From: Massilicoli timonensis
Lineage (GTDB): Bacteria > Bacillota_I > Bacilli_A > Erysipelotrichales > Erysipelotrichaceae
Assembly: GCF_900199515.1 (NCBI RefSeq)
Contig: NZ_LT963434.1
Span: forward strand, 363,272-395,271
Direction of reading: 5' to 3'
DNA: 32,000 nt
Below, in pieces: positions 1 to 32,000 of the stretch. Each line of letters starts with the position of its first letter. The first letter of the stretch is position 1. The notes beneath the pieces are model-generated. The model saw nothing but the letters and a program-made list of their open reading frames with translations, was not told where the DNA came from and made no database searches. Position numbers and translations under genes: made by a program.

Positions 1-125
1 GCGGAAAAAAGGCCGCATGGCAAAACGGTCGCTTCAATGCCTGCCTGTGTAAATACCGGAAGCTGTGCCGTAATGCCGACATGCGAATGAGCGACCATGC
101 TGTTGATGACCAATACTCGTTTCAT
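1..125 (-). CDS. 5' end of a pyridoxal/pyridoxamine-kinase-like gene (continues off the left edge)
   Basis: Not in the ORF track because it is truncated. The reverse strand from ATG at 125 reads MKRVLVINSMVAHSHVGITAQLPVFTQAGIEATVLPCGLFS, which resembles PdxK/PdxY-type kinase N-termini. An AGGTGA RBS lies upstream. The ATG overlaps the rlmA stop as ATGA. Confidence 0.45.
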   Translation of the reverse strand, partial: MKRVLVINSMVAHSHVGITAQLPVFTQAGIEATVLPCGLFS

Positions 126-916
126 TTTTTCACCTGCTTTCGATAACAGACGATATGAAAGGAAGCGCGCACCTGCAGCACGCTCTGCGCTTGTAAACGC
201 GATCGGCTTTCTTTCGGTGATTTCCAATAGTAAGGCGTCATTTGAAACAGCGCCTGCAAATGCTGTGGATCATGGATCTCCATCGGATAAGTCAGCGTTT
301 CTGCTTTTACAACATCAAATGATCGGCTATGAACAGTCGGCTCATGCAGCTGTACGCGCTCATATAAGATCTGTTTTAATTCATATAAATGATATGGTCC
401 CGGCTGCACCTGAATGAGCAGACCATCTGCTTTCAGCACCCGCTGAAACTCCGCTTCATCAAAAGGGGCAAATACGCTGAGCAAGACATCGACGCTTTCA
501 TCCGCCAAAGGCAAATGCGCCAATGAAGCGATCGCATAATGCGTTTTCGCATCGTTTGCGGCAGCGAGCTTCAAAGCAGCCTTGGATAAATCAAATCCAT
601 ACGCTTCCCTCGCATGCTGCGCACATACCTTGGTATAATAGCCTTCACCACATCCCGCGTCCACCAGTACCTGCGGTTTTCGGGAAGCGATCAAATTGCT
701 TACATGATCGCGCAGCGGGGCATAAAAGCCTTCTTCCAAAAACAAGTGCCGGCTTTTGACCATATCCCGATCATCTCCACTGCTCTTTTTTCCATTGATC
801 ATTAAATTGACATAGCCTTGCCTTGCCAGATCAAAACTGTGCCCGTTTTCACATTTCATTTGTTTCTCTGTTCTTCTCAGCTCTGTTTGACAGATCGGAC
901 ATAGCAGCATCTTCAT
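122..916 (-). CDS. rlmA: 23S rRNA (guanine-N1)-methyltransferase, RlmA family
   Basis: 264 aa. N-terminal Cys4 zinc motif (CPIC...C..GH) followed by the SAM motif VLVDAGCGEGYYT. Collinear by eye with E. coli RlmA (FDLA..GYVNL, MTPYYW). Confidence 0.85.
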   Translation of the reverse strand: MKMLLCPICQTELRRTEKQMKCENGHSFDLARQGYVNLMINGKKSSGDDRDMVKSRHLFLEEGFYAPLRDHVSNLIASRKPQVLVDAGCGEGYYTKVCAQHAREAYGFDLSKAALKLAAANDAKTHYAIASLAHLPLADESVDVLLSVFAPFDEAEFQRVLKADGLLIQVQPGPYHLYELKQILYERVQLHEPTVHSRSFDVVKAETLTYPMEIHDPQHLQALFQMTPYYWKSPKESRSRLQAQSVLQVRASFHIVCYRKQVKK

Positions 917-965
917 CGCCTCCCTGCTCTTTGCCTATCTTATCATAGATTTCTTTGCATTGACA

Positions 966-995
966 GAAAAAAAGCTTCTTCCGCCGGATAAAAGC
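966..995 (-). terminator. Possible intrinsic terminator after the small ORF
   Basis: The minus strand reads GCTTTT..AAGAAGC followed by TTTTTTT. The stem is imperfect, about 6 bp with one G-U pair. Confidence 0.35.
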
Positions 996-1048
996 AAATA
1001 ATCTGCCCTTATGCGTCCAAAGCCTTTTCTCATAGCTGCTTCACTAGG

Positions 1049-1240
1049 TTACTGGTTCGGCTTATGATGATCGATCTGTCGCCGTTTTTCTTCATAGATC
1101 TTGCGATGCTTGATCTTATCCGCTTCCAGATCCGCCCCCAATTCAATGCCCATCTCATACTGAAACAGGTTTTCCTGAATCTGTTTTTCCTGATAGAGCG
1201 GATTATGTGTTTGCCGGTTTTGTCCATTTGTTTTTTTCAT
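1049..1240 (-). CDS. Small hypothetical protein (63 aa)
   Basis: I trimmed the track ORF 1049..1303 to the internal ATG at 1240 (MKKTNGQNRQ...), which has an AGAGGTGA RBS 6-7 nt upstream. The protein is charged and Gln/Lys-rich. I recognise no family. Confidence 0.5.
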   Translation of the reverse strand: MKKTNGQNRQTHNPLYQEKQIQENLFQYEMGIELGADLEADKIKHRKIYEEKRRQIDHHKPNQ

Positions 1241-1287
1241 CTGTTTATCACCTCTGCTCTTAATATGAGCAGAAAGCATCTTCTTAT

Positions 1288-1313
1288 ACAAAAGAAAAGG
1301 CACAAAGGTGCCT
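1288..1313 (-). terminator. Intrinsic terminator downstream of thiI
   Basis: The minus strand reads AGGCAC-CTTT-GTGCCT followed by TTTCTTTT, starting 3 nt after the thiI stop. Confidence 0.6.
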
Positions 1314-1315
1314 CA

Positions 1316-2527
1316 CTAAAATAAATCCGCTTCTTCCAGCTGTTTAGCCGGATAGATCTGTACGACTTTGGTGTTTTCGACACACGCATCGACCAGTTTT
1401 TCCCAATCGAAACGGCTTTCCAGCTTTTCACATTTAACGGCGGTCGGCTTCGTTACCGGATTTTTCGGCGTAAAGATCGTACAGCAGTCCTCAAAAGGCT
1501 GGATACTTGTTTCATAGGTATCGATCTGCTTTGCGATCTCAATGATCTCTAATTTATCCAGTGCCGCTACCGGACGGATCACCGGCATCGTTACCACGGA
1601 ATTGATCACATTCATGCTCTCTAACGTCTGCGAAGCGACCTGCCCGATGCTTTCCCCATTGACGATTGCCAAAGCGTGCTGCTTTTGCGCAAGCTTAGCA
1701 GCGATACGATACATCATGCGCCGCATCAGCGTGATCGCATAGCTTTCATCACCGTGCTCATAAATCGCCAATTGCAGATCGGTAAATGGAACGATATGCA
1801 AGGTGATATGTCCCTGATAATGCGCAAGCAGTCTTGCCAGTTCTTCCACCTTTTCCTGTGCCCTTTGAGAGGTATAAGGCGGTGAAGCATAGTGAATGCA
1901 CTCGATCGCAATGCCTCTTTTCATCGTCAGATAGGCTGCGACCGGTGAATCGATGCCGCCGCTGAGCATGACCATCGCTTTCCCACCGATCCCAACCGGA
2001 TAGCCGCCTGCTCCAAGCATCACATCGGTCATGATGCAGGCAAAGCCTTGATGCACTTCGATCGTGATTTTCAGCTGTGGATTTTTGACATCGACCTTCC
2101 AGCGATCGGTTTTTAAGATATCGCCTGCCACGATGCGGTTGATCTCATCGGAAATATAAGAAAACTGCTTATCGCTGCGCCGCGCCGCTACTTTGAAGGT
2201 TTCCTTGTCGCTGGCATTGGCGATCTGCAGGCATGCGGCACGAATATCCTCAATCGTACTCGGCACCTTCATTGCCAACGAAAAGGAACGGATACCGAAA
2301 ACATGGCGGATCCGCTCACATACCGCCTCATGATCACTTTCATGCAGATGGATATACAAACGATCATGTGTTTTCTCATATTCCAGCCGATCAAACTCCC
2401 ACAGTGCATTGCGCATATTGTGCACGAGCCGATTGATAAAATCCTTGCGGTTTTTGCCTTTGGTCGTCAATTCTCCATAACGAACCAAGATATGGTCATA
2501 AACCGGTTTATTAAGTTCTGTATTCAT
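1316..2527 (-). CDS. thiI: tRNA uracil 4-sulfurtransferase ThiI (no rhodanese domain)
   Basis: 403 aa. N-terminal ferredoxin-like/THUMP region (YGELTTKGKNR) and the PP-loop motif LSGGIDSPVA. It lies next to a cysteine desulfurase, as in the Bacillus nifZ-thiI pair. Confidence 0.9.
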   Translation of the reverse strand: MNTELNKPVYDHILVRYGELTTKGKNRKDFINRLVHNMRNALWEFDRLEYEKTHDRLYIHLHESDHEAVCERIRHVFGIRSFSLAMKVPSTIEDIRAACLQIANASDKETFKVAARRSDKQFSYISDEINRIVAGDILKTDRWKVDVKNPQLKITIEVHQGFACIMTDVMLGAGGYPVGIGGKAMVMLSGGIDSPVAAYLTMKRGIAIECIHYASPPYTSQRAQEKVEELARLLAHYQGHITLHIVPFTDLQLAIYEHGDESYAITLMRRMMYRIAAKLAQKQHALAIVNGESIGQVASQTLESMNVINSVVTMPVIRPVAALDKLEIIEIAKQIDTYETSIQPFEDCCTIFTPKNPVTKPTAVKCEKLESRFDWEKLVDACVENTKVVQIYPAKQLEEADLF

Positions 2528-3638
2528 GATAGATCTCCTTTATCACTTGCAAAAACTGTTCGATTTCCGCTATTGTCGTCAAATGCGACAGCGAGATGCG
2601 GATCGCATGGGTTGCACGCAGCTCGCCAAGTCCCATCGCCGCCAGCACATAAGAATGCGGCTTCCCTTTTGAGGCACAGGTGCTTTGCGCCGATACCGCA
2701 AAGCCGCGCGCATTGAGCGCATTCAACATGATCTCACTGCCGATCTGTTCACAGGATACATTTAAGATATAAACTGATCCGTTTTGCGGTGAGTTGATGA
2801 CAAAGCCCTCCATATTTGAAAATGCCTCATAAAGCATCTCATGCAGCGTTTTCACATAGGCGAAATGCTCCCGCTGATGATCCAGCGCCAAACGAATCGT
2901 CTTGGCCCACATCGTATAAGCCGGTGCATTGCTGGTACCGCCGCGCAAATGCTGTTCCTGCTGCCCGGCGCTGATCAAAGCGATGATCGGCAGATGCTCA
3001 CGTTTATAAAGCAGGCCGCACCCTTTTAATCCGTAAATCTTATGGGCGGACATCGTCGCCATATCGACATCCTGCAACGGCAACTCATATTTTCCCAATG
3101 CCTGCACACAATCACAATGAAACACCGCCTTCGTATGCGTATGAACGTAGGCAGCCAGTTCCTTGATCGGATTGATCGCACCGGTTTCATTGTTGATATA
3201 CATGCAGGAAACCAGTATCGTATCTTCCCTTACCGCCGCTGCTAAATCACTTAACCGTACCACTCCATCCTCGCTGACCGGCAGATAAGTGATCGAAAAT
3301 CCAAACACTTCTTCCAGCTGTTTCATCGTTTCCAGTACGCTGGAATGCTCCACCGCCGTCGTGATCAAATGTTTTCCTTTATGTGCATTGGCAAACGCAT
3401 AGCCTTTGATCGCCATATTATTCGATTCACTGGCACACGAAGTAAAAAAGATCTCGGTTTCCTTTACACATAAAGAAGAAGCCACTTGCATGCGGCTTTG
3501 CTTCATTAACCGATCGGCTTTTCTGCCGATCTCATGCAGGGAATCGCTGTTCCCATAATACTGCTTCAAAACTTTGTAATAACCCTCTAACACTTCTTCA
3601 TGCAGAGGCGTTGTTGCAGCATAATCCAGATAAATCAT
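2511..3638 (-). CDS. Cysteine desulfurase (class V aminotransferase, NifZ/IscS-like)
   Basis: 375 aa. Starts MIYLDYAATTP, has the PLP-lysine context SAHKIYG, and ends in a typical C-terminal region. It overlaps thiI by 17 nt. Confidence 0.9.
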   Translation of the reverse strand: MIYLDYAATTPLHEEVLEGYYKVLKQYYGNSDSLHEIGRKADRLMKQSRMQVASSLCVKETEIFFTSCASESNNMAIKGYAFANAHKGKHLITTAVEHSSVLETMKQLEEVFGFSITYLPVSEDGVVRLSDLAAAVREDTILVSCMYINNETGAINPIKELAAYVHTHTKAVFHCDCVQALGKYELPLQDVDMATMSAHKIYGLKGCGLLYKREHLPIIALISAGQQEQHLRGGTSNAPAYTMWAKTIRLALDHQREHFAYVKTLHEMLYEAFSNMEGFVINSPQNGSVYILNVSCEQIGSEIMLNALNARGFAVSAQSTCASKGKPHSYVLAAMGLGELRATHAIRISLSHLTTIAEIEQFLQVIKEIYHEYRT

Positions 3639-3653
3639 CTTTCATCACCTTTT

Positions 3654-5408
3654 CTATTCCTCTAATGTGACTGGCGTTTCACTTTGACGGTTTATCAGTT
3701 TTTCATAAGCACCCGGATGGATCTTTTCGATCGCCTGAATGCTGATTTTCAATGCTTTCGTATATTCGCCGTTTCTAAAGCATAATTCCGCTCTGGTTAA
3801 TTCCGAGTCGATCTCCGGATACGTAGAACGATATTTATTGCCGAAAACGATTGCATTTTCCACCATCTTCGCCATCCCTACCAGTTTATTCACACTGTTG
3901 TAAAGGGTATAGACGAAATCAATGGTCGAACGCAGCTGCACGTTAAGATTTTTCACATCAAGCGGGATAGAATCCAAAATACAGCGTACATCGTTCATCA
4001 TTCGCTTTGCCTTCGCCAGATTCTGATCAAACTGTGCATCCACGACCGGTAAGCGGTGCCGCGTCATCTTGACTTGGATCTCATTCAGGATCAACTGCAT
4101 CTTGATCAGCTGTTTCTTCGCCCGTTCTTCATCGCTGCACGCATTCTCCAGCTTTCCTTTTAAGGAAGCGACCTCTTCATGAAAAGCGTGTACGCTCGTA
4201 TCTAATTCCTGTAATGAGAGCAGGATCGTCGTATAAGGAACGCCCGCTTCTTCCAGCACTTCCTCCAGTTTTCCTCTGGTACGATTGATCTCCGTCAGTT
4301 TCTCCTTGATTTCTTCTAAACGCTGCGCCCAGTTCTCAAAGCCAAAGCGCGAAGATACCCGCTCATACAGCTGATCGATCGTTTCGATATCGCGATTGAC
4401 CTCACGAATTTCCTCGAATAACATCTGTTTGTCGCTTTGCACCTGCCGATACGCATTTGCTTCTTTGGTGATCTGCTCTTGGATCTGCACCAGCCGCCGC
4501 TGGCTTTCATTCAGATGCTCCTGTACGCTTTCTAAATTGCCGCAGCGAAGCTGATTCAGATCATCCTTCAGCATATCGGTAACGATCTCCAGGTTTTTCT
4601 TCACTTCCAAATGTTCCAGATAAACGCCCTGATTTTTTGCTTGGGCATAATTATAGTTTACTTCATCGATCGCTCTTGGCAATACGCCCTTAGCGATTTC
4701 ATAGAGCTTCGGCAGCTGATTCTTCAGCGCTTCCAAGTGCGCGATGGATTTTGCGATCTCTTCCTGCTGCTCGCCTGCTTTGGTAAATTCAGAAGCGAAC
4801 ATCCATTCCTCAAACAAAGAGAACATCTTTTCGATCGACAGCACTTCATTTTCCATGTACTCGCTGCTTTGATGGAAAGCGCCGTGGTTTTCCGTAATGA
4901 CCTTTTTCAGATTGCGAAACTGCTCCTTCAGCACATTGATCTGTTCACGCTGCGCATTTTCCTGCTCCAAGACGCCGTCCAGCAATTCATTGACCCGCTG
5001 CACATTGATTTCACAGCCATCTAACAGCGCGCTCAACTCTTCCATGCGTCTGCTTGCCGCCTTGATCTTGCGCACGTATAAAAAGTCATCGCTTTCCGCT
5101 AGAGCGATCGAACACTGCTTTAACTGCTCCTGTACTTCGTCAAAATCATTCTTACAGGCGTCCACCCGTTCCGCCATCATCGTATTCACTCTTGACAAAG
5201 CCACCGCTTTATTCACCTTAAAAGCCAACGGCACGCCTTTTAACGTATGATAACGCTGTTCCAGTTCTTCCAGCTGCCGCTTCGCTTTTTTGCTGCGAAT
5301 CATCATCATGATCAAAGTAATGACAATGATCGCTGCCAAACCGATCCCGATATATAAAAACGCATCTGCTGATACCAGCTGCTTTACTTTCCCGATAAAA
5401 CTGTTCAT
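3654..5408 (-). CDS. ezrA: Septation ring formation regulator EzrA
   Basis: 584 aa. A single N-terminal TM helix is followed by long coiled-coil repeats. Length and layout match EzrA, and the thiI/desulfurase/rpsD neighbourhood is typical of Bacilli-type genomes. Confidence 0.85.
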   Translation of the reverse strand: MNSFIGKVKQLVSADAFLYIGIGLAAIIVITLIMMMIRSKKAKRQLEELEQRYHTLKGVPLAFKVNKAVALSRVNTMMAERVDACKNDFDEVQEQLKQCSIALAESDDFLYVRKIKAASRRMEELSALLDGCEINVQRVNELLDGVLEQENAQREQINVLKEQFRNLKKVITENHGAFHQSSEYMENEVLSIEKMFSLFEEWMFASEFTKAGEQQEEIAKSIAHLEALKNQLPKLYEIAKGVLPRAIDEVNYNYAQAKNQGVYLEHLEVKKNLEIVTDMLKDDLNQLRCGNLESVQEHLNESQRRLVQIQEQITKEANAYRQVQSDKQMLFEEIREVNRDIETIDQLYERVSSRFGFENWAQRLEEIKEKLTEINRTRGKLEEVLEEAGVPYTTILLSLQELDTSVHAFHEEVASLKGKLENACSDEERAKKQLIKMQLILNEIQVKMTRHRLPVVDAQFDQNLAKAKRMMNDVRCILDSIPLDVKNLNVQLRSTIDFVYTLYNSVNKLVGMAKMVENAIVFGNKYRSTYPEIDSELTRAELCFRNGEYTKALKISIQAIEKIHPGAYEKLINRQSETPVTLEE

Positions 5409-5428
5409 AACGACACCTCACTGTTCTA

Positions 5429-5437
5429 ATTGTACCA
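5429..5437 (-). promoter_or_regulatory. Candidate extended -10 promoter element for ezrA
   Basis: The minus strand reads TGGTACAAT (TGn + TACAAT) about 20 nt upstream of the ezrA RBS GAGGTG. There is no good -35 element. Confidence 0.3.
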
Positions 5438-5474
5438 TAAAAACGGCGCCTGCACTACTACTCATCGCCGTTTT
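5438..5474 (-). terminator. Intrinsic terminator after the 5458..5847 ORF
   Basis: Perfect 9-bp inverted repeat AAAACGGCG / CGCCGTTTT (5440..5448 and 5466..5474). The minus-strand stem is followed by a T-run. The loop is long (17 nt), and one arm lies in the last codons of the ORF. Confidence 0.5.
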
Positions 5475-5847
5475 CCGTTAATTTTTTCAGCGTGGCAACC
5501 ACCTGTTTCAAAAAAGCGTCATATTCGATAAACTGATAGCCGTCTTTTTCCGCTACTGCCACATAATAGCGATCCTTGCTGTCATAGATGACCTGGTATT
5601 CCTCATCCTTCAGCAAAATACAGGCAATGCCGATCTTAACGCTTGTCAAATTGCCCTGCACCATGACGTGATGATAGCCGTATTCCGTACTCACATAGAT
5701 CGTATCATCGTACAGATCGCTTTTATAAGCGCCGCTTTCCACTCCATGCAAATATAGATCGCTTTTGACATAGACCGGCACCTGATCAGGAAACTGCTGC
5801 CGGGCACTGATCAAAACTGCCTCTTCCTCAAATTCACCGATTTTCAC
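5458..5847 (-). CDS. Hypothetical protein (129 aa)
   Basis: I trimmed the track ORF 5458..5904 to the GTG at 5847 (V/MKIGEFEEE...), which is preceded by GAGGAAG with 7-nt spacing. I recognise no family. Confidence 0.55.
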   Translation of the reverse strand: MKIGEFEEEAVLISARQQFPDQVPVYVKSDLYLHGVESGAYKSDLYDDTIYVSTEYGYHHVMVQGNLTSVKIGIACILLKDEEYQVIYDSKDRYYVAVAEKDGYQFIEYDAFLKQVVATLKKLTENGDE

Positions 5848-6022
5848 TTCATCACTTCCTCGTCTTTTGTTACTGATTATACCACAGGAAAGACGACAAT
5901 GCACGGCGTTCTTTCCAGAATGCTTTACGCCTGCACTGTCAAAAGGACTACATTTTTCTCAAAACGATCCAAAGATGCGCTGTCTTTGCCTGTTTTTTTC
6001 TGCATTTCATCGATATTTTATT

Positions 6023-6051
6023 TGACTTTCCGTCAGGCATTTGTTAAGATA
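6023..6051 (+). promoter_or_regulatory. Sigma-A-type promoter for rpsD
   Basis: TTGACT (6023..6028), a 17-nt spacer ending in TGT (extended -10), then TAAGAT (6046..6051). Confidence 0.5.
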
Positions 6052-6233
6052 ATGAAGCGTCAAATGATAGCAGCATGTAAAGTCGTGCAGTTTCGCGTTG
6101 TTCACACAGTGATTTGTGGGGCATCGGGTAACTTTGCTGTAAGAGCGAGGATGTCGTATGGAGCAACACCCTGCATGGATGATTTACACCTGTTATTGTT
6201 TATCGTCAAAATAAACAATAAGGAGGACACATT
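6052..6233 (+). promoter_or_regulatory. rpsD 5' leader with an SD-proximal hairpin (candidate S4 autoregulatory element)
   Basis: The untranslated leader is about 180 nt. A perfect 11-bp stem, TTATTGTTTAT (6193..6203) / ATAAACAATAA (6211..6221), runs into the AAGGAGG Shine-Dalgarno sequence. Confidence 0.45.
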
Positions 6234-6836
6234 ATGTCAAGAATGAACGGACCTGTCTGGAAAGTTTCTCGCCGTCTGGGATTCTCGATCTTGGAAACCG
6301 GTGAAGAACTGCAAAGACGCCAGTACGCACCAGGTCAGCACGGACCTACAAAACGTGTAAAATTAACAAACTATGGTTTACAGTTACGTGAAAAACAGAG
6401 AATCCGCAACATGTACCAGGTAAATGAACGCCAGTTCTACAACACTTTCAAGAAAGCATCTAAAAAGGAAGGTGTTACCGGCCACAATTTCTTATTCATG
6501 CTGGAATCTCGTTTGGATAACTTAGTTTACCGCATGGGATTTGCCCGCACACGCCGCGCTGCTCGTCAGCTGGTCAATCACGGACATATTCTGGTAAACG
6601 GCAAGAAGGTGGACATCCCTTCCGCACAGATCAAATTAGGTTCTGTGATCGAAGTGAAAGAAAAGTCAAAGAACATGACCGCCATCAATGAAGCATTAGA
6701 AGCAACATTGAATACACCGGCTTTCGTAACCGTTGATAAGGATGCGAAAAAAGGTACTTATGTACGTCTGCCGGAACGCAGCGAGCTGAATCAGGAAATC
6801 AACGAGCTGCTGGTAGTAGAATTTTACAACCGCTAG
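6234..6836 (+). CDS. rpsD: 30S ribosomal protein S4
   Basis: 200 aa with canonical S4 sequence (YGLQLREKQ, the S4 RNA-binding domain [21 protein letters not shown]). A strong AAGGAGG RBS is present. Confidence 0.95.
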
Positions 6837-7012: not shown

Positions 7013-8071
7013 TTAATATGTTAAGTTATTGATATTGAATGCAGTGTTTAGACCATCGCCTAATACGATACGATTGCCTTTTACTTCAATTACCGTATAT
7101 GATTTTGATGTAACGCTGGAAAGCAGACTTACTCCATCATATGATACTGCCTTAATCGGTTTTGCTTTCATTCCTACTTTAAGTGTTTTTGTTTCAGTAA
7201 CAAGCATTAAGTCTGAAACATGGAAAGCTGTATTCAAGCCATTACCTAAAACTGCTCTATCGCCTTTTAATTCAATAACAGGATAGTTGTTTTTAGTAAC
7301 GCTCGCCAATAGGCTCACACCGTCATAAGACACTGCTTTAGTCGGACGGACGCTCGAACCGACTGCAATTTTGTTTTCAGTAGGTTTATTTTCTACTGAA
7401 TCTTGCGCTGTTCCGTACACATAATCTTTACTCCATGTTTGTAACCAGCCTTGATCTGTACTCGCATCAAGTCCTTCTGACGGAATGCCTTGAATACCTT
7501 TCAATGCGCCATTTTTAGCAAGAGATGTAAACTGGTGCAACAGCACATTTCCAAATGGATTATACTGCAACTTACCGCCCCAGTTATCTTGACCGTTATT
7601 GCTTCCATAATTTGCAAGCCACAAGGTCCATGCCTTGAAACCGTCTGCTGTTAATTTAGTACGGAACCAGTTTTCATTCGCATAGATTCCGACTGGAATG
7701 CCTGCTGCTTCAATCTCATCACAGAACGCTTTAGCAATCTCATATGCCTTTTCAGCGGTTAAATTGCCCTGAAAAGCACTGTATTCCATATCATAATATA
7801 ATACTCGCACTTTGTATCCTTTGATTGCAGATAAAGCCATTCGCGCCTCTGCTTTTGCTTCAGCTGCGTTTCGTGCATATGCGAAATGGTATGCACCTAA
7901 TGGAATGCCTAATTCATTTGCCTGTTTCGCATTGTTCGTCCATTGCTTATCAATCTGCTTTGTGTTATCCCATCCGTAAGAGCAACGAGCAATTACACCT
8001 GCAATGCTCTTTTTTGCTGCCGATAAATCTACTTTACCCTGATGCTCTGAAATATCAATAATAATACTCAT
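7013..8071 (-). CDS. Endolysin: N-terminal GH25 muramidase plus two C-terminal wall-binding repeats
   Basis: 352 aa. The N-terminus (IIDISEHQG..., GAYHFAYA) is GH25-like. Residues 235-291 and 297-352 are an approximately 55-aa tandem repeat (KAVSYDGVSLL.SVT...Y.VIE.KG.R.VLG.GLNTAF). AGGAGG RBS. Confidence 0.9.
   Translation of the reverse strand: MSIIIDISEHQGKVDLSAAKKSIAGVIARCSYGWDNTKQIDKQWTNNAKQANELGIPLGAYHFAYARNAAEAKAEARMALSAIKGYKVRVLYYDMEYSAFQGNLTAEKAYEIAKAFCDEIEAAGIPVGIYANENWFRTKLTADGFKAWTLWLANYGSNNGQDNWGGKLQYNPFGNVLLHQFTSLAKNGALKGIQGIPSEGLDASTDQGWLQTWSKDYVYGTAQDSVENKPTENKIAVGSSVRPTKAVSYDGVSLLASVTKNNYPVIELKGDRAVLGNGLNTAFHVSDLMLVTETKTLKVGMKAKPIKAVSYDGVSLLSSVTSKSYTVIEVKGNRIVLGDGLNTAFNINNLTY
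7016..7369 (-). repeat. Tandem duplication encoding the two endolysin wall-binding modules
   Basis: 7016..7183 and 7199..7369 encode near-identical peptide repeats. The similarity is also visible at the DNA level. Confidence 0.8.
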
Positions 8072-20143: not shown

Positions 20144-20596
20144 TCAATCATCTTCTTCAATGATGTTTGGTCTAGCAGCAGACTCTCCTAGATAATGCTG
20201 CATTTTGTAATCTGCTTCTTTGCGCAGATAAAAAATATATTCATCAAGTTTATTTTGAATATCGACTGGCGTATCTTCTTTTACCACTGTCGCTTTTTCA
20301 ACTACCATAATAAAATCGTCATAAGCAAGTTTTATACTTTCATTACATTCTCTAACTTCTACCGGAAGAAGATTGTTTGAATATAATAAAATAGCATCTT
20401 TGATAGAAGGCTCAGAATGTCCCAAAGGTATGCCACGTTCAATTAAGTCGTCGAGCATATCTCCGATATATTTATACCACTCTTCTAATTGCGGATGAAT
20501 CGTAAAAAAACCATGCCCTACAACGTTATGATGCAACACTCCTAGGTTTTGATAAACAACTTTCAAAAATGCAGTTAACTCTTCATAATGATTCAT
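20144..20596 (-). CDS. Dps-like ferritin-fold protein
   Basis: 150 aa. LHHNVVGHGFFTIHPQLEEWY....LDDLIER..PLG aligns by eye with the Dps/MrgA core ([20 protein letters not shown]....VDTIAERLLAIG). The C-terminal ..YLG motif is also present. Confidence 0.7.
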   Translation of the reverse strand: MNHYEELTAFLKVVYQNLGVLHHNVVGHGFFTIHPQLEEWYKYIGDMLDDLIERGIPLGHSEPSIKDAILLYSNNLLPVEVRECNESIKLAYDDFIMVVEKATVVKEDTPVDIQNKLDEYIFYLRKEADYKMQHYLGESAARPNIIEEDD

Positions 20597-20742
20597 TTTG
20601 ATCCCTCCTTTCTAGATTTATCTTGCTTTTCTTTATTTTTACTTTTCATGATTTTCACATATTCATCTTGTGTCAAATGAAAACCACATAATAGACATGT
20701 TACTCCATCTGCATGTCCTTGAAACTGATGTTTACATTTCAT
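20593..20742 (-). CDS. Small zinc-ribbon-like basic protein (49 aa)
   Basis: I trimmed the track ORF to the ATG at 20742 (MKCKHQFQGHADGVTCLLCG...), which is preceded by AAAGGAGA. It has a CxH-x9-CxxC pattern and a Lys-rich tail. Its stop overlaps the Dps-like start (ATGA). Confidence 0.5.
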   Translation of the reverse strand: MKCKHQFQGHADGVTCLLCGFHLTQDEYVKIMKSKNKEKQDKSRKEGSK

Positions 20743-20756
20743 TATTGTTCTCCTTT

Positions 20757-20782
20757 CAAAATAAAAAGCGCCAAACAGCGCT
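20757..20782 (-). terminator. Weak terminator-like hairpin between the 68-aa ORF and the Zn-ribbon/Dps cassette
   Basis: The minus strand reads AGCGC-TGTTTG-GCGCT followed by TTTTTATTTT. The stem is only 5 bp, and it starts within the TAG stop of the upstream ORF. Confidence 0.35.
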
Positions 20783-20987
20783 AATTGTTCCAATAAATCT
20801 CATCATATATTTTCTGATACTTTCTACCGGTATCGTTAAATTCCCATCCCGGATCATATCCTTCCTCAAGAATCAGATCATTAAGAGGATCTAAAATATC
20901 ATTAACATCATCAGAATAAATCATCTCCTCAGCGTTTTCAAATTTCTCTCTCAAAAATGCTTTTTGTTCGTCTGTTAACTTTATCAT
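20781..20987 (-). CDS. Very acidic 68-aa protein (candidate immunity/antidote partner of the MuF C-terminal module)
   Basis: 18 D/E against 7 K/R. Its ATG overlaps the MuF stop (ATGA). The functional assignment is inference only. Confidence 0.5.
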   Translation of the reverse strand: MIKLTDEQKAFLREKFENAEEMIYSDDVNDILDPLNDLILEEGYDPGWEFNDTGRKYQKIYDEIYWNN

Positions 20988-22618
20988 TTATTTCTACCTC
21001 CACGCGGATTTGCTTGAATCAAATTACCTGTATCTGGATTGACAGTCACATTACAAAGATTAGAAACATAATTGTGGCTTCTATAACCATTTGATTCTTT
21101 TTCAGTAATTTTATCCGGATTCTCTAATGTTGCGAGCACATCACCAATCGGCACTCCTTTTCTCATACCCTTGATTGGCTCATTACTGCTTTCATACTGC
21201 CCGATTACTCGATCAATAAAATGTGTCTTATATCCTGTTATCATTATACCATCTTTTGTGGTCTTTCCAACAAGATCTTTTTCAACTTTTGTTGCTACTT
21301 GTTTATATATGTCAAGCGTAACAAAACTTGATATATCGCCTTTTTTAACCGCATAATCATATCCTTTTTTTAACGTATAATTTTTTGCAGCCTGATTAGA
21401 TTCACTAAATATATCCTTGTTAAAAGAAATTACACGTTCTCTATCTGTCCTTCTAGTTCTTCCTGTTTCTGCGATAAATAATTTCATTTTTTCCTGCTTG
21501 CGTTTTATTTTAGCAGATGCCTTTGCAAAATCATCGCTGTCTTCCAGTCCGGCTTTTTTTAATGCAACAACTTCTGTTTTTGCTTTTCGGATTTCTCTTT
21601 CAATTGCTCGTTGCCGCTGCGATTCTTGGTAAACTTCATCATTTTCTTCTATTTCTGCTTTTGTTAATGGCTTATTTACTAATGTTGATATCCCGGGAAT
21701 AAACGGTATCGGATTATGCCCGCAGTTGATTCCGAATAACCCCGCAGGCTCGCCGTAACTAGTCGATGATAACGGTTTGAAACGATGCTTTTTCCCAAGT
21801 GCGTCTTTAACCGTTCCACTTCTGCCTGATGTTGAAAATATCTTTCCTTGATATGGCGCACACAAAGGGCGAGCACCAGCATGTTTATCGACTTGAATCA
21901 AATCGTTTCCATAGTCCTCATTCCGCTTTTGAACAACATCGATTGACATATTATGAACATTAGTACGACAGTACATATTTGCATATGCTTCTGCACTCCA
22001 TTTCCTGCCCGCTCGATCAATATATCCAGACACATTTTCATCAATCATCTGTCGTATTGCCTCTGCAACAGCACTTTGTCTTGCTTTTCCTTCATATGTT
22101 TTTCTAACGGCTTCATCAAGTATTGAGTAACGTGGATCATTCATCTTATTTCGGAAGTTCCTAATGACATTTGAAATTGCACGGCTAAACGATTGAACGA
22201 CATCTTCTTTCATAACTGCATTCATCGTCGAAAATGTTTGCTTAAATTCCTGCGATTTCATCTTTTTTAATAGAGATATAGCCTTGCTTCCAGCATAAGC
22301 CTCAGTAGCAATCAATACACCATTTTCAGCAGCTTTTTTTAATTTTGGCTCTACCTCTTCTAATGATTCATCTACAGTATCATTTAGCGCTTTTCGGATC
22401 GTTGCTGAATATGGATATTCAGACTGAATGCTTTTCACATCTTTCAATAATCTTGAAATTAGTTGCACCATTTCTTTCTGCCACACATCAATAGGTTTAT
22501 CGATATCTTTTCCGATGTATTCCGCCATTTGTATCATAATCTGATTTGCCATGCTTCCATACATCGCTTCAAATGGCTCTGCTATTTCTAATATATCATT
22601 TCTAGTGATAACTGCCAC
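20984..22618 (-). CDS. MuF / SPP1 gp7-like head morphogenesis protein with an extra C-terminal module
   Basis: 544 aa. GTG start with a GGTGAGGA RBS, overlapping the portal stop by 1 nt. The MuF core is at about aa 185-305 (RAGRKWS..Y......T, PLCAPYQGKIFS, NCGH). A coiled-coil region follows, then about 150 further residues ending in THFIDRVIG...GVPIGDVLATLENPDKI...VTVNPDTGNLIQANP. Confidence 0.85.
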   Translation of the reverse strand: MAVITRNDILEIAEPFEAMYGSMANQIMIQMAEYIGKDIDKPIDVWQKEMVQLISRLLKDVKSIQSEYPYSATIRKALNDTVDESLEEVEPKLKKAAENGVLIATEAYAGSKAISLLKKMKSQEFKQTFSTMNAVMKEDVVQSFSRAISNVIRNFRNKMNDPRYSILDEAVRKTYEGKARQSAVAEAIRQMIDENVSGYIDRAGRKWSAEAYANMYCRTNVHNMSIDVVQKRNEDYGNDLIQVDKHAGARPLCAPYQGKIFSTSGRSGTVKDALGKKHRFKPLSSTSYGEPAGLFGINCGHNPIPFIPGISTLVNKPLTKAEIEENDEVYQESQRQRAIEREIRKAKTEVVALKKAGLEDSDDFAKASAKIKRKQEKMKLFIAETGRTRRTDRERVISFNKDIFSESNQAAKNYTLKKGYDYAVKKGDISSFVTLDIYKQVATKVEKDLVGKTTKDGIMITGYKTHFIDRVIGQYESSNEPIKGMRKGVPIGDVLATLENPDKITEKESNGYRSHNYVSNLCNVTVNPDTGNLIQANPRGGRNK

Positions 22619-24237
22619 TATTCCTCACCGCCAAGCAAAAACTCATCTACTGCATCAGCATTCACTCCGCTTTCTTCTTTAATTCGGTTAAGTTCTTGAT
22701 TTGCTTCTTCATCTGTCATTCCTAACTTTTTCGTCATGAATGTTCGCTTTGACATAACGCCATTTGACATTAACATAATACCTTCGTTAATGTCTGTTTG
22801 ACGGTCTTGCAGAATAGAATCATCAAACACCACTTTCACACTGTAATTTTTAGCAATGCTGGAAATCGGAACACCGTTCCATTTAACATCATAGAGGGCT
22901 GCCACATTGATGATCCCGTGAACGATCTGTTCAATCGCGTTTTTCACTTGCATCTGATTAGCACGTACAGTCTTATATGTTTTTGAATTTTCACTAATGA
23001 TTTCAGTAGCAGTTTTCAATCCATGCGACTGATCGAATGTGAATGTTCCTGCACTGAATCCTAATTGCAGACACAGCATATTCAGAAAAGCATTGATCGC
23101 GCTGATATGTTCATCAATACGCAGTTCAATAGAGTTATCTTGAATTTTGAGTTGCTCTGTATCGTCTGTCGATAACGCAACATAAGCTTCGTCATTCGCG
23201 TCAAAATATCTAACTGTTCTTTTCGTAATTGGATCATGCACTGTTCGTAATGCACTTGTTGGCACAATAATCCTCTTTTTGCCCAACACAAATTCACGAA
23301 TAAATGAATCATAGCAAATATCTAGTGCATGTAATGTAGCAAACGCATTTGCATAAACAGATACACCTAGCGGCGAGTTATCGTCAATGTTATTTGCGAT
23401 AGCGGTTCTATAATAAGCAAAAAGGCTTTCTGTGATTCCATTGATTTCAGTACTTGGATTCAAAAACGGATAAATTTCTGCAAGCGGATATCGAAATCCC
23501 AAAATATCCTGCGGCTCCATTAAACCGTCATTGCCGATGACATCTCGCTTTTCGGCTCTAAATGCTTCATTTTCAATATAATAGGTCAGTCCATTCCATC
23601 GATGCCATTCTAATCGAGTATAATAATAGCCATCCTTCGCTTGTCTGCTGATGAACACTCCTTCTGTTACCTTTGCGTTATCCCAAGCAGTAGGGACAAA
23701 CTGATCTGCCATACAATATCCAATCATAATTTGCCCAGCACCGGGAATCACGTTTCCATTACCGTCGCGCCTTTCTTCATACCAGACTTTTAGAGCGCCA
23801 CCACCTAAAGCCATGCTTTGCTCGATATGTTCTTGCATTTTTGTCCAAAACGCATTTTTAGAAAGAACATCTTGAACGAAGTCATCCAGCGGATCTGTCT
23901 TTCCATCGTTTAACTCTTTCTCTGACGAAACGTGCACTTCGCACTGTTCGTTCCAAATAAGCCCCGCTAATTCAGCACAAACCGCTTTTTCAATGTTAAG
24001 CGGCTCTACTTTCCTCATATTGTTCGGATTGTCAACTGTCGGTGCCTTTACATAATGCCACGGTTTATAGAATCCCCTATATAGATACTTCCAAATAAAT
24101 ATCCCAAAATAATAGAATTGATTAAACGAAGGTACTCCGTTTATTTCGAATATATCTTTGAATTGTTTTGCAATCCCTAAATCTGCACCAGTTCTCTGCA
24201 TGAAATTTCTCACCGTCCTTTTAATTTTTTCAAACAC
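22618..24237 (-). CDS. Portal protein (SPP1 gp6-like)
   Basis: 539 aa with a GTG start preceded by AAGGAGGTG. It lies between terL and the MuF gene, the canonical position. Confidence 0.8.
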   Translation of the reverse strand: MFEKIKRTVRNFMQRTGADLGIAKQFKDIFEINGVPSFNQFYYFGIFIWKYLYRGFYKPWHYVKAPTVDNPNNMRKVEPLNIEKAVCAELAGLIWNEQCEVHVSSEKELNDGKTDPLDDFVQDVLSKNAFWTKMQEHIEQSMALGGGALKVWYEERRDGNGNVIPGAGQIMIGYCMADQFVPTAWDNAKVTEGVFISRQAKDGYYYTRLEWHRWNGLTYYIENEAFRAEKRDVIGNDGLMEPQDILGFRYPLAEIYPFLNPSTEINGITESLFAYYRTAIANNIDDNSPLGVSVYANAFATLHALDICYDSFIREFVLGKKRIIVPTSALRTVHDPITKRTVRYFDANDEAYVALSTDDTEQLKIQDNSIELRIDEHISAINAFLNMLCLQLGFSAGTFTFDQSHGLKTATEIISENSKTYKTVRANQMQVKNAIEQIVHGIINVAALYDVKWNGVPISSIAKNYSVKVVFDDSILQDRQTDINEGIMLMSNGVMSKRTFMTKKLGMTDEEANQELNRIKEESGVNADAVDEFLLGGEE

Positions 24238-29641: not shown

Positions 29642-31027
29642 CTAAAAAGGTAACCATTTTGGTATTTCCATTTCATTTTGTGGTAAATACTCAGTTTTCT
29701 TTTTTGTAATTCCCTTAATTTCATCGATTGCTGATTGACTCATGATTTTAATCATTTCATCACTCATACGCATATGCTCAGCTTGTTTTCGTTTAATATT
29801 TTCCAATACTTTCATTTCTTTTTCAGAAATAATGACATATACATCTACTGCATTTTGCTGTCCAAATCGATAACATCTTCTGATTGCCTGATAAAATTGC
29901 TCATAAGAATCTGATAATCCACAAAAGATCATTTGATTACAATTCTGCCAGTTCATTCCAAATCCACAAATAGAAGGCTTTGAAATCAGTGTTTTTATCT
30001 TTCCTGCCGCAAATCCAATCATGGCATTCTTTTTATGTTCGGGATCATCTGATCCTTTTACTTCGACCGATCCATGAATGGCTTTATACAACATTTCACT
30101 CTCATAATTGTAATCACACCACACCAAACATTGATTTGATTTCTTGGCAATTTTATTAGCAATCCGTACACGTTCTTCTACACTCTGCTTTCTTGCTTCA
30201 CGTCTTTCTGTCAATGTTTCAGCGTACTCAACAAATAAACTTGTTTCTTCAGGCGTACTTTCCACTACAATTTCATGAATGTTTAATTCAGGTAGATCAA
30301 ATCTGCTTCCGTCAAAGCCTAAGTCCTTCGGATTCTTAATCATCATTGCCCAGGTTGAAATCCATTTGAAAAACTCCTTTTCCGCATGCCCTTTCAATCT
30401 CCAGCCAATCCGCTCTTGTTTTCCTTTTCTTTTAATACAGTCATTGATGAAAAATGTTGATAACATTTCACTTCTCGGCATGATCCCTAGAAATTCTGCT
30501 GTTGTACCGATTTCCGTATAGTCATTTGGCGAAGGCGTTGCTGTACAACATAGTTTGTATGGTGTATGTGCAAAACGCTCTAATAATTCATTAGTGGTCT
30601 TTCCGGAATAAGACTTTATGATGGATGATTCATCTAATACAATTCCACTAAACACATCCGTATCAAATTTATGTAATTTATCATAGTTTGTGATATTAAC
30701 ACCATTTACCACATCTTCTTGTGAACTGCATAATTCACAATGGATACCAAATTTATGCGCCTCTTGTTTCGTTTGTTCTGCTACTGCAAGTGGTGCTAGT
30801 ATCAACACAGGTTCATTTGTATGCTTATGAACTGATTCTGCCCATGATAATTGCTGAATTGTTTTTCCTAATCCGGTATCTTCAAATAATGCTGCTCTTC
30901 CTTTTCGCAATGCCCACTTAACAATTGCTTCTTGGTAATCAAATAAATTCTCATTAAGATATTTTGCATCAAATCCACTTTCGATTGACTGATATTCTTT
31001 GGATTTTAGAAATTCGTCATAAGTCAT
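29642..31027 (-). CDS. SNF2-family helicase
   Basis: 461 aa with motif I GLGKT, motif II VLDESS, and a C-terminal helicase domain containing QAIRRCYRFGQ. Confidence 0.85.
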   Translation of the reverse strand: MTYDEFLKSKEYQSIESGFDAKYLNENLFDYQEAIVKWALRKGRAALFEDTGLGKTIQQLSWAESVHKHTNEPVLILAPLAVAEQTKQEAHKFGIHCELCSSQEDVVNGVNITNYDKLHKFDTDVFSGIVLDESSIIKSYSGKTTNELLERFAHTPYKLCCTATPSPNDYTEIGTTAEFLGIMPRSEMLSTFFINDCIKRKGKQERIGWRLKGHAEKEFFKWISTWAMMIKNPKDLGFDGSRFDLPELNIHEIVVESTPEETSLFVEYAETLTERREARKQSVEERVRIANKIAKKSNQCLVWCDYNYESEMLYKAIHGSVEVKGSDDPEHKKNAMIGFAAGKIKTLISKPSICGFGMNWQNCNQMIFCGLSDSYEQFYQAIRRCYRFGQQNAVDVYVIISEKEMKVLENIKRKQAEHMRMSDEMIKIMSQSAIDEIKGITKKKTEYLPQNEMEIPKWLPF

Positions 31028-31914
31028 AGCTCTAATCCCTCAAATAGATCGATCTGTTCTTCTGATGTTTCTGCCTTTTGACAATTTTTCACTGCCTGCT
31101 TGAAATATGATGGCTTTAATTCAATTCCGATACCTTTACGGTGCATTTTGATTGCTTGATATACCTCTGATCCAATACCAAGAAACGGTGTAAATACTAT
31201 TTCTTCTTCTGCACTCCATAATTCAATACATCTTTCAATTACATCCAGTTGTAAAGGACAGATATGCTTTTCATCACGTTCTTCTCTTACAGAAGTACGA
31301 TTCAGTGTATTTGATTGTTTAATATCCATCCATACCGGACTTGCATACTGCTGCCATTTTTCTACCGGAAACGTCTCATTAGTATGTGCAATCAAGTTTT
31401 GATTATCTCCCGGTTTTCTCATGGTAATGATATAATCGGCAATCCCTTGTCTACACATGGAACTATCTTTTTTAATTTGCTTATGTAGAAGCCCAAGTGC
31501 TTTGGTACGTTGCATTGCAACAACCGGATCTTTCCAAATCGTTACACGCGAATGATAATAAAATCCGCACTCCTGAAATAGTTTGATCAAGATTCCCGGA
31601 AAGTCTTTCAATCCGATAAAACCGTCATTATTTTTTGTAGTTGGAAGATCCATACAGTGAATGCTGACTAACCGACCTGGCTTCATAATACGATACAATT
31701 CTTTAACGATGAATGTGAACTGCTGATAAAATTCCTCTGTGCTCCTGCAATTTCCTAAATCTCTAGGGCTATCGCTATACGTATATAAATCCTCAAATGG
31801 TGGACTAAAAATTGAATAATCCATGCTATTATCTTGCAAAAACTGCATTACTTCTGCACTATCGCCATTGTAGAGTGCATATTTTTTTGAAATTGCTTGA
31901 TCAATTACTTTCAA
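31024..31914 (-). CDS. Beta-class N4-C/N6-A DNA methyltransferase (orphan)
   Basis: Catalytic motif SPPF near the N-terminus (DYSIFSPPF) and the SAM motif FTPFLGIGSE near the C-terminus. I prefer the TTG start at 31914 (AAGGAGGA RBS, TTGA overlap with the upstream stop) over the ATG at 31932. Confidence 0.8.
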   Translation of the reverse strand: MKVIDQAISKKYALYNGDSAEVMQFLQDNSMDYSIFSPPFEDLYTYSDSPRDLGNCRSTEEFYQQFTFIVKELYRIMKPGRLVSIHCMDLPTTKNNDGFIGLKDFPGILIKLFQECGFYYHSRVTIWKDPVVAMQRTKALGLLHKQIKKDSSMCRQGIADYIITMRKPGDNQNLIAHTNETFPVEKWQQYASPVWMDIKQSNTLNRTSVREERDEKHICPLQLDVIERCIELWSAEEEIVFTPFLGIGSEVYQAIKMHRKGIGIELKPSYFKQAVKNCQKAETSEEQIDLFEGLEL

Positions 31915-32000
31915 TTTGATTCCTCCTTGCATGCTATCTCGGATAATAATTTCTTTATTTCCTCATCACTCACTACTTCGCTTGTTTCTTCCCCTTGATC
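31911..32000 (-). CDS. 3' end of an upstream early gene (truncated by the window edge)
   Basis: Open frame from the window edge, ...DQGEETSEVVSDEEIKKLLSEIACKEESN*. Its stop overlaps the methyltransferase TTG start. Confidence 0.45.
   Translation of the reverse strand, partial: DQGEETSEVVSDEEIKKLLSEIACKEESN

Follow-up and report, generated by a model that had tools for sequence, protein, structure and literature searches.

A candidate toxin–immunity cassette fused to the MuF head protein of a Massilicoli timonensis prophage

Why should the head protein of a phage run on for about 150 residues beyond its conserved domain, and why should the gene for a small, very acidic protein begin on its stop codon? 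The question is raised by a stretch of 32,000 nucleotides from Massilicoli timonensis (NCBI RefSeq assembly GCF_900199515.1, contig NZ_LT963434.1, positions 363,272–395,271 of the forward strand), which we call the window and from whose first letter all positions below are counted unless another locus is named. Within the head-morphogenesis module of a prophage, with a portal gene upstream and scaffold and major capsid genes downstream, the window carries a MuF gene of the minor capsid protein 2 type (20984–22618) that encodes 544 amino acids (aa) and is followed by an open reading frame (ORF) of 68 aa (20781–20987); these and all other features of the head module lie on the minus strand. The original prediction, made from the letters alone, was that the end of the MuF protein and the 68-aa ORF might be a toxin carried in the virion and its immunity protein. 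We find that the last ~147 residues of the MuF protein and the 68-aa ORF form what is, judged by comparison with related loci, a mobile two-gene cassette fused in frame to the head protein. We consider it probable (roughly 0.7) that this cassette is a toxin–immunity unit of the MuF polymorphic-toxin kind, with a toxin of the BECR RNase type.

Both ORFs are real genes by the measure of database comparison, because each has exact copies and many diverged homologues. The 544-aa protein is identical to WP_102266987.1 ('phage minor capsid protein', Massilicoli timonensis) and was seen on 45 contigs, and the 68-aa protein is identical to WP_102266985.1 ('hypothetical protein', Massilicoli timonensis), seen on 86 contigs. 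The ORF list and the sequence also bore out the ATGA overlap originally described for the two genes. Residues 9–382 of the long protein (21473–22594), the conserved carrier part, match the Pfam family PF06152 (Phage_min_cap2) with an E-value of 4e-67 and 227 bits, against a cut-off of 26.3, and the protein also matches phrog_581 ('minor head protein') with an E-value of 4e-88.

The closest MuF relative that we recovered, on an IMG/VR contig (locus L040), shows where this carrier part ends. Its MuF protein is 68% identical to the window's over the MuF core, and the two loci are collinear from the portal gene through the major capsid gene in both DNA and translated comparisons. In L040, however, the MuF protein is only 398 aa long, ending in ETGRTRRYDREQVIQLKEEKK and a stop codon, and it is followed directly by a homologue of the window's zinc-ribbon ORF and then by an ORF for a Dps-like protein. 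Homology between the long and short proteins stops at I397, the V of the ...DRERV motif being residue 396, which places the end of the core within 1–2 residues of the originally proposed residue 395. At the DNA level, synteny runs to ~21413–21549 and then jumps from ~21413 to ~20733, and an alignment with L040 puts the left junction after codon I397 (21428) and the right junction at ~20764. L040 lacks exactly three things, namely the C-terminal module, the 68-aa ORF and a hairpin, and the window therefore carries ~664 extra bases that hold these three (20764–21427). The G+C content of this segment is 33%, compared with 38% in the MuF core.

The hairpin that closes the segment (20757–20782; AGCGCT-GTTT-GGCGCT followed by a run of T, placed at 20782–20767 by the terminator scan) resembles a terminator and has six pairs, four of them G–C, with the right junction lying just past its T-run. 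A hairpin at this place had been noted from the letters, and it does lie inside the segment that L040 lacks; on its own it is weak evidence, because the scan of the region found two such sites when 1.2 were expected.

Other relatives extended the comparison from presence and absence to replacement. A 703-aa MuF protein (L036) that is 35% identical to the window's carries a different C terminus with an HEYGH motif, which is zinc-peptidase-like, together with a small ORF of its own. Conversely, at an Amedibacillus locus (L001) the MuF N terminus is only 26% identical to the window's, whereas the module is 66% identical, and the module was found altogether on MuF backbones that are 22–40% identical to that of the window. 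The C-terminal extension thus differs among related MuF proteins in the cassette-like manner anticipated for a polymorphic toxin: short in L040, of another kind in L036 and shared with the distant L001 backbone.

A profile search with the module over 1.84 billion representative proteins, with clustering at 50% identity, yielded 678 clusters at E ≤ 1e-3, 463 of them at E ≤ 1e-10. The match reaches the C terminus in nearly all of the 150 proteins listed out of these 678 clusters. The carriers fall into three groups (PF06152 MuF proteins, which are the majority, PF04233 MuF proteins, and non-MuF proteins of 930–1130 aa, some of which also bear LPD3 or PBECR3 domains), and they come from Erysipelotrichaceae, Christensenellales, Oscillospiraceae, Lachnospiraceae and Tissierellia. 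Within the module, a two-helix N-terminal sub-domain (aa 401–449, 21272–21418; motif GY..A..KGDIS..V.F..Y; helices 5–30 and 39–53 of the AlphaFold2 model described below) precedes the core and also occurs in the non-MuF carriers. Most family matches begin at profile positions 2–25, with core-only exceptions such as P0008 and P0156; because matches usually start at the two-helix sub-domain, sub-domain and core usually travel as one unit.

If the 68-aa ORF encodes an immunity protein, it should accompany the module wherever the module goes. In a survey of one genome per species, comprising 33 loci, of which 31 had readable downstream DNA and were informative, a homologue of the 68-aa protein stood directly after the module gene in 31 of 31, so the two do travel together as predicted. 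These homologues measure 66–88 aa with isoelectric points (pI) of 4.05–5.25, their spacing from the module gene ranges from a 40-nt overlap to a 58-nt gap, and they share F11, D52, R55, D62 and the motif ND.GR.AQ[RK].YD.IY..N. The window's own partner, which has 18 D/E against 7 K/R and a pI of 4.07, is as acidic as had been claimed. The junction of the two genes reads ...AAT AAA TGA at the MuF stop and ATG ATA... at the partner start, and a GGAGG lies 9 nt upstream of that start. Across the 14 loci with an intact MuF protein, pairwise identities of partner and module correlated with a Spearman coefficient of 0.70, as against 0.46 for partner and MuF N terminus and 0.35 for module and N terminus, and the partial correlation of partner and module given the N terminus was 0.70; we use these coefficients as description alone, since the pairs lack independence and linkage makes neighbouring genes co-vary.

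The partner has no match in PHROG and, taken as 26 partners or as a family profile, only chance-level matches in Pfam and the Protein Data Bank (PDB); no helix-turn-helix (HTH), ribbon-helix-helix (RHH) or other Pfam domain was detected in it. A promoter-like site (21243–21270, minus strand; TTGGAA, a spacing of 16 nt, and TATAAT with an upstream TG) lies within the coding region of the module, ~260 nt upstream of the partner start, and would matter if the partner were expressed in the lysogen; with 10 promoter-like sites in the region against 9.9 expected, we make no claim of an internal promoter driving the partner. As a separate observation, one locus (L009:3812-6636, Lachnospiraceae bacterium KA00044) holds the module–partner unit twice, the copies being ~97% identical: copy 1 is a 195-aa orphan ORF with its partner, and copy 2 ends a 498-aa MuF-family protein, recognized by a MuF profile built for this analysis, also with its partner. 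An M48 peptidase gene lies upstream there on the opposite strand.

An indication of what kind of cassette this is came from one Christensenella genome (Christensenella sp. Marseille-P2438). At the first of two loci there (L003), the module forms the C terminus of an 1130-aa protein, behind which lie the partner and then a 201-aa orphan ORF. The first ~70 residues of this orphan repeat the region before the module in the main gene (~90% identity), after which it carries an Ntox50 domain (PF15542, E 1e-25); an acidic 108-aa ORF follows the orphan in turn. The second locus (L005) has two further truncated orphan genes with repeated handles and different ends, and a small acidic ORF also follows the first of them. 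Because the orphan repeats the main gene and then carries Ntox50, the module is exchangeable with a recognized toxin domain. Orphan modules of this design, in which a repeat of the main gene leads into another C-terminal domain, are known from contact-dependent inhibition (CDI), Rhs and MafB systems. Read from gene arrangement, then, the module and its partner occupy the position that toxin and immunity genes take in polymorphic toxin loci.

What might the module do? The original prediction saw in its last ~90 residues the pattern of a small RelE/BECR-type nuclease domain resembling DUF4258, beginning at a THFIDRVIG motif, which is indeed present and starts at residue 465. We modelled the module (aa 397–544) with AlphaFold2, which returned a predicted local distance difference test score (pLDDT) of 85.5 and a chain that runs from two long helices through a short helix, a loop and another helix to four strands. 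The core (aa 452–544, 20987–21265; pLDDT 86.7), our candidate for a colicin-like BECR RNase domain, is predicted to contain helices at core positions 14–21 and 40–48 and strands at 52–58, 61–67, 71–76 and 81–87. Colicin-like BECR RNases consist of a pre-alpha helix, an alpha helix and strands beta1–4, with an active site on the pre-alpha helix and beta4 that usually comprises His and basic residues, and DUF4258/Ntox49 has been grouped among them (bioRxiv 10.64898/2026.08.28.747851). The predicted core, a model rather than a solved structure, has this order of elements.

Conservation falls on the corresponding elements. In an alignment of 63 diverse members, R470, G473 and Q535 are invariant, and H466, F467, R486, G488, V489 and I534 are at least 90% conserved. 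H466 to R470 (H-F-I-D-R, 21209–21223) would supply a candidate catalytic His and Arg on the pre-alpha helix; R486-K-G488 (21155–21163), an R-x-G followed by V (R35, G37 and V38 of the core alignment), puts a conserved basic residue just before the second helix; and I534-Q535 (21014–21019; I83 and Q84 of the core alignment) lie on the last predicted strand. The conserved His, basic residues and Gln are thereby placed on the predicted model by their positions along the sequence.

Searches by fold and by sequence leaned in the same direction. Foldseek against the PDB ranked RelE best (E 0.13), accompanied by CdiA-CT NC101 (E 0.35), colicin E5 and RelE2 (template modelling (TM) scores of 0.49/0.51). 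In two PDB fold searches, BECR RNases (RelE, CdiA-CT NC101 and colicin E5) took five of the top six places in one and six of the top seven in the other. Among the non-significant matches of a BFVD fold search were a phage protein with DUF4258 (E 0.1) and one that is RelE-like. When 78 family members were compared singly with Pfam, DUF4258 was the most frequent match (four members, best E 0.0028), with Colicin_E5 in two and Colicin_D in one; DUF4258 scores of these members reached at most 18.4 bits against a gathering threshold of 25. We also tried a hand-written DUF4258 consensus, which found no real DUF4258 proteins in plasmids and was used only for ranking family members.

Shorter homologues helped to relate the module to that family. 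These short forms, which do not have the insertion that follows the H-x3-R helix in the window's (long-form) family, score 46–50 bits against the family profile and end the MuF proteins of Streptococcus prophages (315.4, phiNIH1.1 and the Javan series) and of the Flavonifractor phage Chenonceau. Their best Pfam match outside MuF is DUF4258 (E 2e-4 to 1e-3; 13.9–21.9 bits), which covers the whole model in Chenonceau and 315.4. In the Chenonceau and 315.4 modules (DUF4258 positions 1–70), R486-K-G488 aligns with the R-G-[IV] of DUF4258. The partners of short forms (Javan617 and Chenonceau) are small and acidic and have no detectable homology to the window's partner beyond a weak N-terminal motif. 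We note in passing that in the S. pyogenes prophages 315.4 and phiNIH1.1 and in other Streptococcus (Javan-series) prophages the short-form module is hidden under the annotation 'minor capsid protein', and that in Streptococcus phage Javan284 (MK448898.1, L044:601-846) it lies outside the annotated 'minor capsid protein' coding sequence, which ends at locus position 617, having escaped annotation through either a frameshift or a separate ORF.

The fold searches and the Pfam scans thus converge on a BECR-type fold, none of them significantly. The predicted kinship to RelE and DUF4258 therefore held in so far as it recurs in independent sequence and fold searches, and fell short in that every match lies below threshold. 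The module is probably related to DUF4258/Ntox49, as a diverged form that bears an insertion, rather than a member of that Pfam family as defined. In sequence it is distinct from PBECR1–5 and from DUF6883/BECR-Tox3: PBECR1–5, DUF6883 and DUF4926 were absent both from the matches of the window's proteins and from those listed for 78 members of the module family and 26 of the partner family, and the sole trace was PBECR2 at E 0.096 in the short-form relative Javan617. Bearing on the question of a toxin domain are the sub-threshold DUF4258 and colicin matches, the non-significant fold matches and the interchangeability with the Ntox50 orphan. We regard the module as probably an RNA-cutting toxin domain.

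Reading the cassette as toxin and immunity gene suggests the following course of events. The module core would be an RNase, by analogy most likely a tRNase, with an active pocket that H466, R470, R486 and Q535 would form between the first core helix and the last strand. Translation of the partner would be coupled to the MuF stop codon, and the acidic partner would probably bind and block the module within the cell that builds the virions. A few copies of the fusion protein might then be incorporated at the portal and exit the head together with the DNA, a step suggested by what is known of SPP1 gp7 and by the literature on other MuF proteins (PMC5576092, PMC12226406, PMC5512222). The RNase would act in the newly infected cell, and the partner would protect any cell that expresses it, be it a lysogen or a cell that has retained the gene for the partner alone. 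What the comparisons and the model show is the structure of the cassette, the strict pairing and co-variation of module and partner, their place in the toxin slot of orphan arrays, and a predicted topology with its conserved residues; that the module cleaves some RNA, that the partner inhibits it by binding and that the fusion is packaged and delivered we infer.

Several results weigh against this reading. The module has no statistically significant match to any toxin family or solved structure: the window's module (aa 397–544) gave zero Pfam matches even at E ≤ 10, the best Foldseek E-value against the PDB was the 0.13 given above with TM-scores of 0.44–0.51, and the best DUF4258 score of any relative, 21.9 bits, stays below the cut-off of 25 for membership in PF14076. 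A profile built from the core alignment and run against a set of 5.8 billion proteins found unannotated family members only, with no DUF4258-annotated protein to bridge the two families. The proposed catalytic set is uncertain because Q535, invariant in the long-form family, gives way to T or V in the short forms. Instead of being hypervariable, the partner family is fairly conserved, and since neighbouring genes co-vary through linkage alone, the co-variation of partner and module would be expected anyway. Finally, a terminator-like hairpin within a late operon lacks an explanation.

The same enzymology could also serve a different beneficiary. On the reasoning put forward for polyvalent proteins, the RNase, delivered with the DNA, might cut host RNAs such as tRNAs or defence RNAs (for example, crRNAs) and so aid the incoming phage in taking over the cell or countering its defences, with the partner only silencing the enzyme during assembly; we hold this to be possible, though only tentatively. 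Exactly this role was proposed for MuF–BECR fusions by Iyer et al. (PMC5512222), the partner is translationally coupled to a late gene, as would suit protection during assembly, and the module also ends non-MuF proteins of 930–1130 aa, some of them with LPD3 or PBECR3, domains that were defined in polyvalent proteins. However, the close relative L040 does without the cassette, which is thus not needed for infection, and orphan arrays of the kind seen here, with recombination handles and Ntox50 as an alternative end, characterize polymorphic toxin loci, which diversify under competition. Intact partner genes in prophage remnants (see below) suggest, moreover, an immunity benefit to the host cell. 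The absence from L040 also counts against a structural role, in which the module would bind capsid, portal or nucleic acid and the acidic protein would be an assembly chaperone or DNA mimic, with no toxicity at all: head assembly can dispense with a cassette that a fully syntenic head module of 68% identity lacks. The module also moves among unrelated carriers, including non-MuF proteins, and is interchangeable with an Ntox50 module, and its most conserved positions are polar (H, R, R and Q). Very acidic small proteins can be DNA mimics. The lack of a significant match to any toxin, the location of the gene in the head module near a Dps-like protein, and the prediction that the BECR-like C-terminal domain of phage Mu's own MuF protein is inactive and RNA-binding (PMC5512222) nevertheless speak for such a role, which we judge to be very improbable.

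We give the least credence to a type II toxin–antitoxin pair that happens to be fused to MuF and that acts inside the lysogen, undelivered, to stabilize the prophage or abort infections. DUF4258 has been listed among toxins of the RelE/ParE type in toxin–antitoxin modules (PMC11980606), RelE structures are among the best fold matches, and the window does contain an integrated prophage. In DUF4258 toxin–antitoxin modules, however, the antitoxin is listed as coming first (PMC11980606), whereas here the candidate toxin precedes its partner. Nor do orphan arrays belong to the features of toxin–antitoxin modules; the candidate toxin is the C terminus of a late structural protein or another large carrier, never with a promoter region of its own and coupled to late expression; and the partner has no detectable DNA-binding domain, be it HTH, RHH or any other in Pfam.

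Among variants of the toxin–immunity reading, one concerns who benefits from the antidote. Degraded prophages or cells might keep only the acidic ORF and so survive the RNase injected by related phages, in which case the cassette would act as a toxin-based kin-recognition system or superinfection barrier among gut Firmicute prophages, and its target might be a specific tRNA or defence RNA in place of bulk RNA. We consider this unlikely; it was suggested by two loci. In Merdibacter sp. Marseille-QA0792 (OZ221971.1, L002:3908-4747), a prophage remnant of ~0.8 kb lies among host transporter and oxidoreductase genes, with a module that is N-terminally truncated and frameshifted, a zinc-ribbon ORF that is degraded (one Cys changed to Tyr), and a partner ORF that is intact (71 aa, 82% identity to the window's). 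Selective retention of the partner is unsupported there, the ratio of nonsynonymous to synonymous substitution rates (dN/dS) relative to the window being ~0.04 for module and partner alike. At the other locus (L048:2936-4818, Logan SRR8925773_11697), a core-only module of 85 aa, a partner-family ORF of 66 aa and a remnant of a DUF4355 scaffold gene form a block directly downstream of a cas operon (Cas5, Cas6e-type, Cas1 and Cas2-DnaQ). The block, possibly a phage fragment caught within a CRISPR array or next to one, is flanked by CRISPR-repeat-like copies, GTACCCGCATACGCGGGGGTGATC at 2936–2959 and a copy with three mismatches at 4795–4818, when none would be expected by chance.

The surroundings of the cassette in the window are those of a prophage. 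Host genes occupy positions 1–6836 (an rlmA-like methyltransferase gene, thiI, a class-V aminotransferase gene, ezrA and rpsD), and their position beside a GH25 lysin gene (7013–8071) shows that the prophage is integrated, with a boundary between the end of rpsD at 6836 and the start of the lysin gene at 7013 and a span from there to the window's far end; the entire window contains no tRNA genes. The head module runs in the order terminase, portal, MuF, 68-aa ORF, 49-aa ORF, 150-aa ORF, scaffold and major capsid protein. The portal gene (22618–24237; PF05133, phrog_533) is directly upstream of MuF. The 49-aa ORF (20593–20742) likely encodes a zinc ribbon (CxxC...CxxC, MKCKHQ...CLLCGF...) and has its own GGAG ribosome-binding site; in L040, which retains it, it overlaps the stop codon of the short MuF gene. 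The 150-aa Dps/ferritin-like protein (20144–20596) matches phrog_3636 ('DNA binding protein') with an E-value of 1.5e-8 and Pfam Ferritin at 0.0019, below the cut-off, is 59% identical to its L040 counterpart, and might be a packaged DNA-binding or protective protein. Elsewhere in the prophage, in its early or replication region, a gene for an SNF2-family helicase (461 aa) and one for an N6/N4 DNA methylase (302 aa) adjoin each other (29642–31932, minus strand).

How much of this is new? Neither the module nor the partner passes any Pfam or NCBIfam cut-off, no solved structure was matched by sequence, and searches of the module against NCBIfam and PDB sequences gave nothing usable. The module–partner family is without functional annotation in Pfam, NCBIfam and the source databases queried, with the full tables of the 2017 and 2026 papers lying outside that check; the suggestion that the combination might be uncharacterized agrees with this, no curated family in Pfam, NCBIfam, PDB sequences or, for the partner, PHROG fitting either protein. 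At present its members bear only the names 'minor capsid protein' and 'hypothetical protein', and work on the cassette would also help to annotate many gut prophages better. Temperate phages have been proposed to arm themselves or their lysogens with MuF toxins, a route that has been tested little, and of the MuF toxins considered here only the (p)ppApp synthetase class of Apk2 has been characterized experimentally (PMC12226406). The window and L040 form a clean natural pair that differs by presence and absence, the compact two-gene unit can be cloned directly, and the cassette would offer a tractable system for asking whether MuF-anchored RNases are packaged and delivered, what they target and whether the antidote alone protects cells.

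Among known systems, the locus most resembles the MuF polymorphic toxins, for which a downstream immunity ORF is established (Jamet et al. 2017, PMC5576092; PMC12226406). Like them, and like Apk2/IapK/Aph1 of Streptococcus pneumoniae prophages (PMC12226406), it has an N-terminal MuF domain (here PF06152) encoded in a head module beside the portal gene. It shares with them a C-terminal extension that varies, a small ORF (<150 aa) just behind the MuF gene, Firmicute hosts and the coexistence of short and long forms among close relatives (PMC5576092). Unlike the known MuF toxins, its C-terminal domain passes no Pfam toxin cut-off and its partner family is unannotated, and the module bears no relation to Apk2's (p)ppApp synthetase. 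The core has the predicted topology of DUF4258 (PF14076)/Ntox49, with a pre-alpha helix, an alpha helix and four strands, H-x3-R on the first helix and R-G-[IV] before the second; as in DUF4258, the conserved residues lie on the first helix and the last strand, and DUF4258 is the top Pfam match of several family members and of the short-form relatives. It differs from DUF4258 in an insertion of ~3–21 residues (13 in the window's protein) that separates the H-x3-R helix from R-G-V, in the extra N-terminal two-helix sub-domain and in the invariant Gln on the last strand, and, unlike in DUF4258 systems, the partner follows the module gene and is no DNA-binding antitoxin.

With a predicted RNase of the BECR type at the C terminus of its MuF protein, the locus also recalls the fusions of MuF or portal proteins to PBECR domains, for which packaging and injection have been predicted, and BECR-Tox3 (PMC5512222; bioRxiv 10.64898/2026.08.28.747851). 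BECR-Tox3 (DUF6883) on Phage_Mu_F proteins likewise has a conserved small partner downstream (DUF4926), and packaging and injection have been proposed for such fusions, whereas the window's module and partner belong to sequence families different from PBECR1–5 and DUF6883/DUF4926. The Christensenella loci, in which a main gene and partner are followed by truncated genes that repeat a stretch of the main gene with another C terminus, are built like CDI, Rhs and MafB loci; unlike those systems, however, the carriers are phage or polyvalent-type proteins rather than secreted CdiA, Rhs or MafB proteins, and orphan modules are absent from the window. Polymorphic toxins of the MuF type and fusions of MuF to BECR RNases are known kinds, to which a module–partner family without functional annotation in the databases queried is probably to be added.

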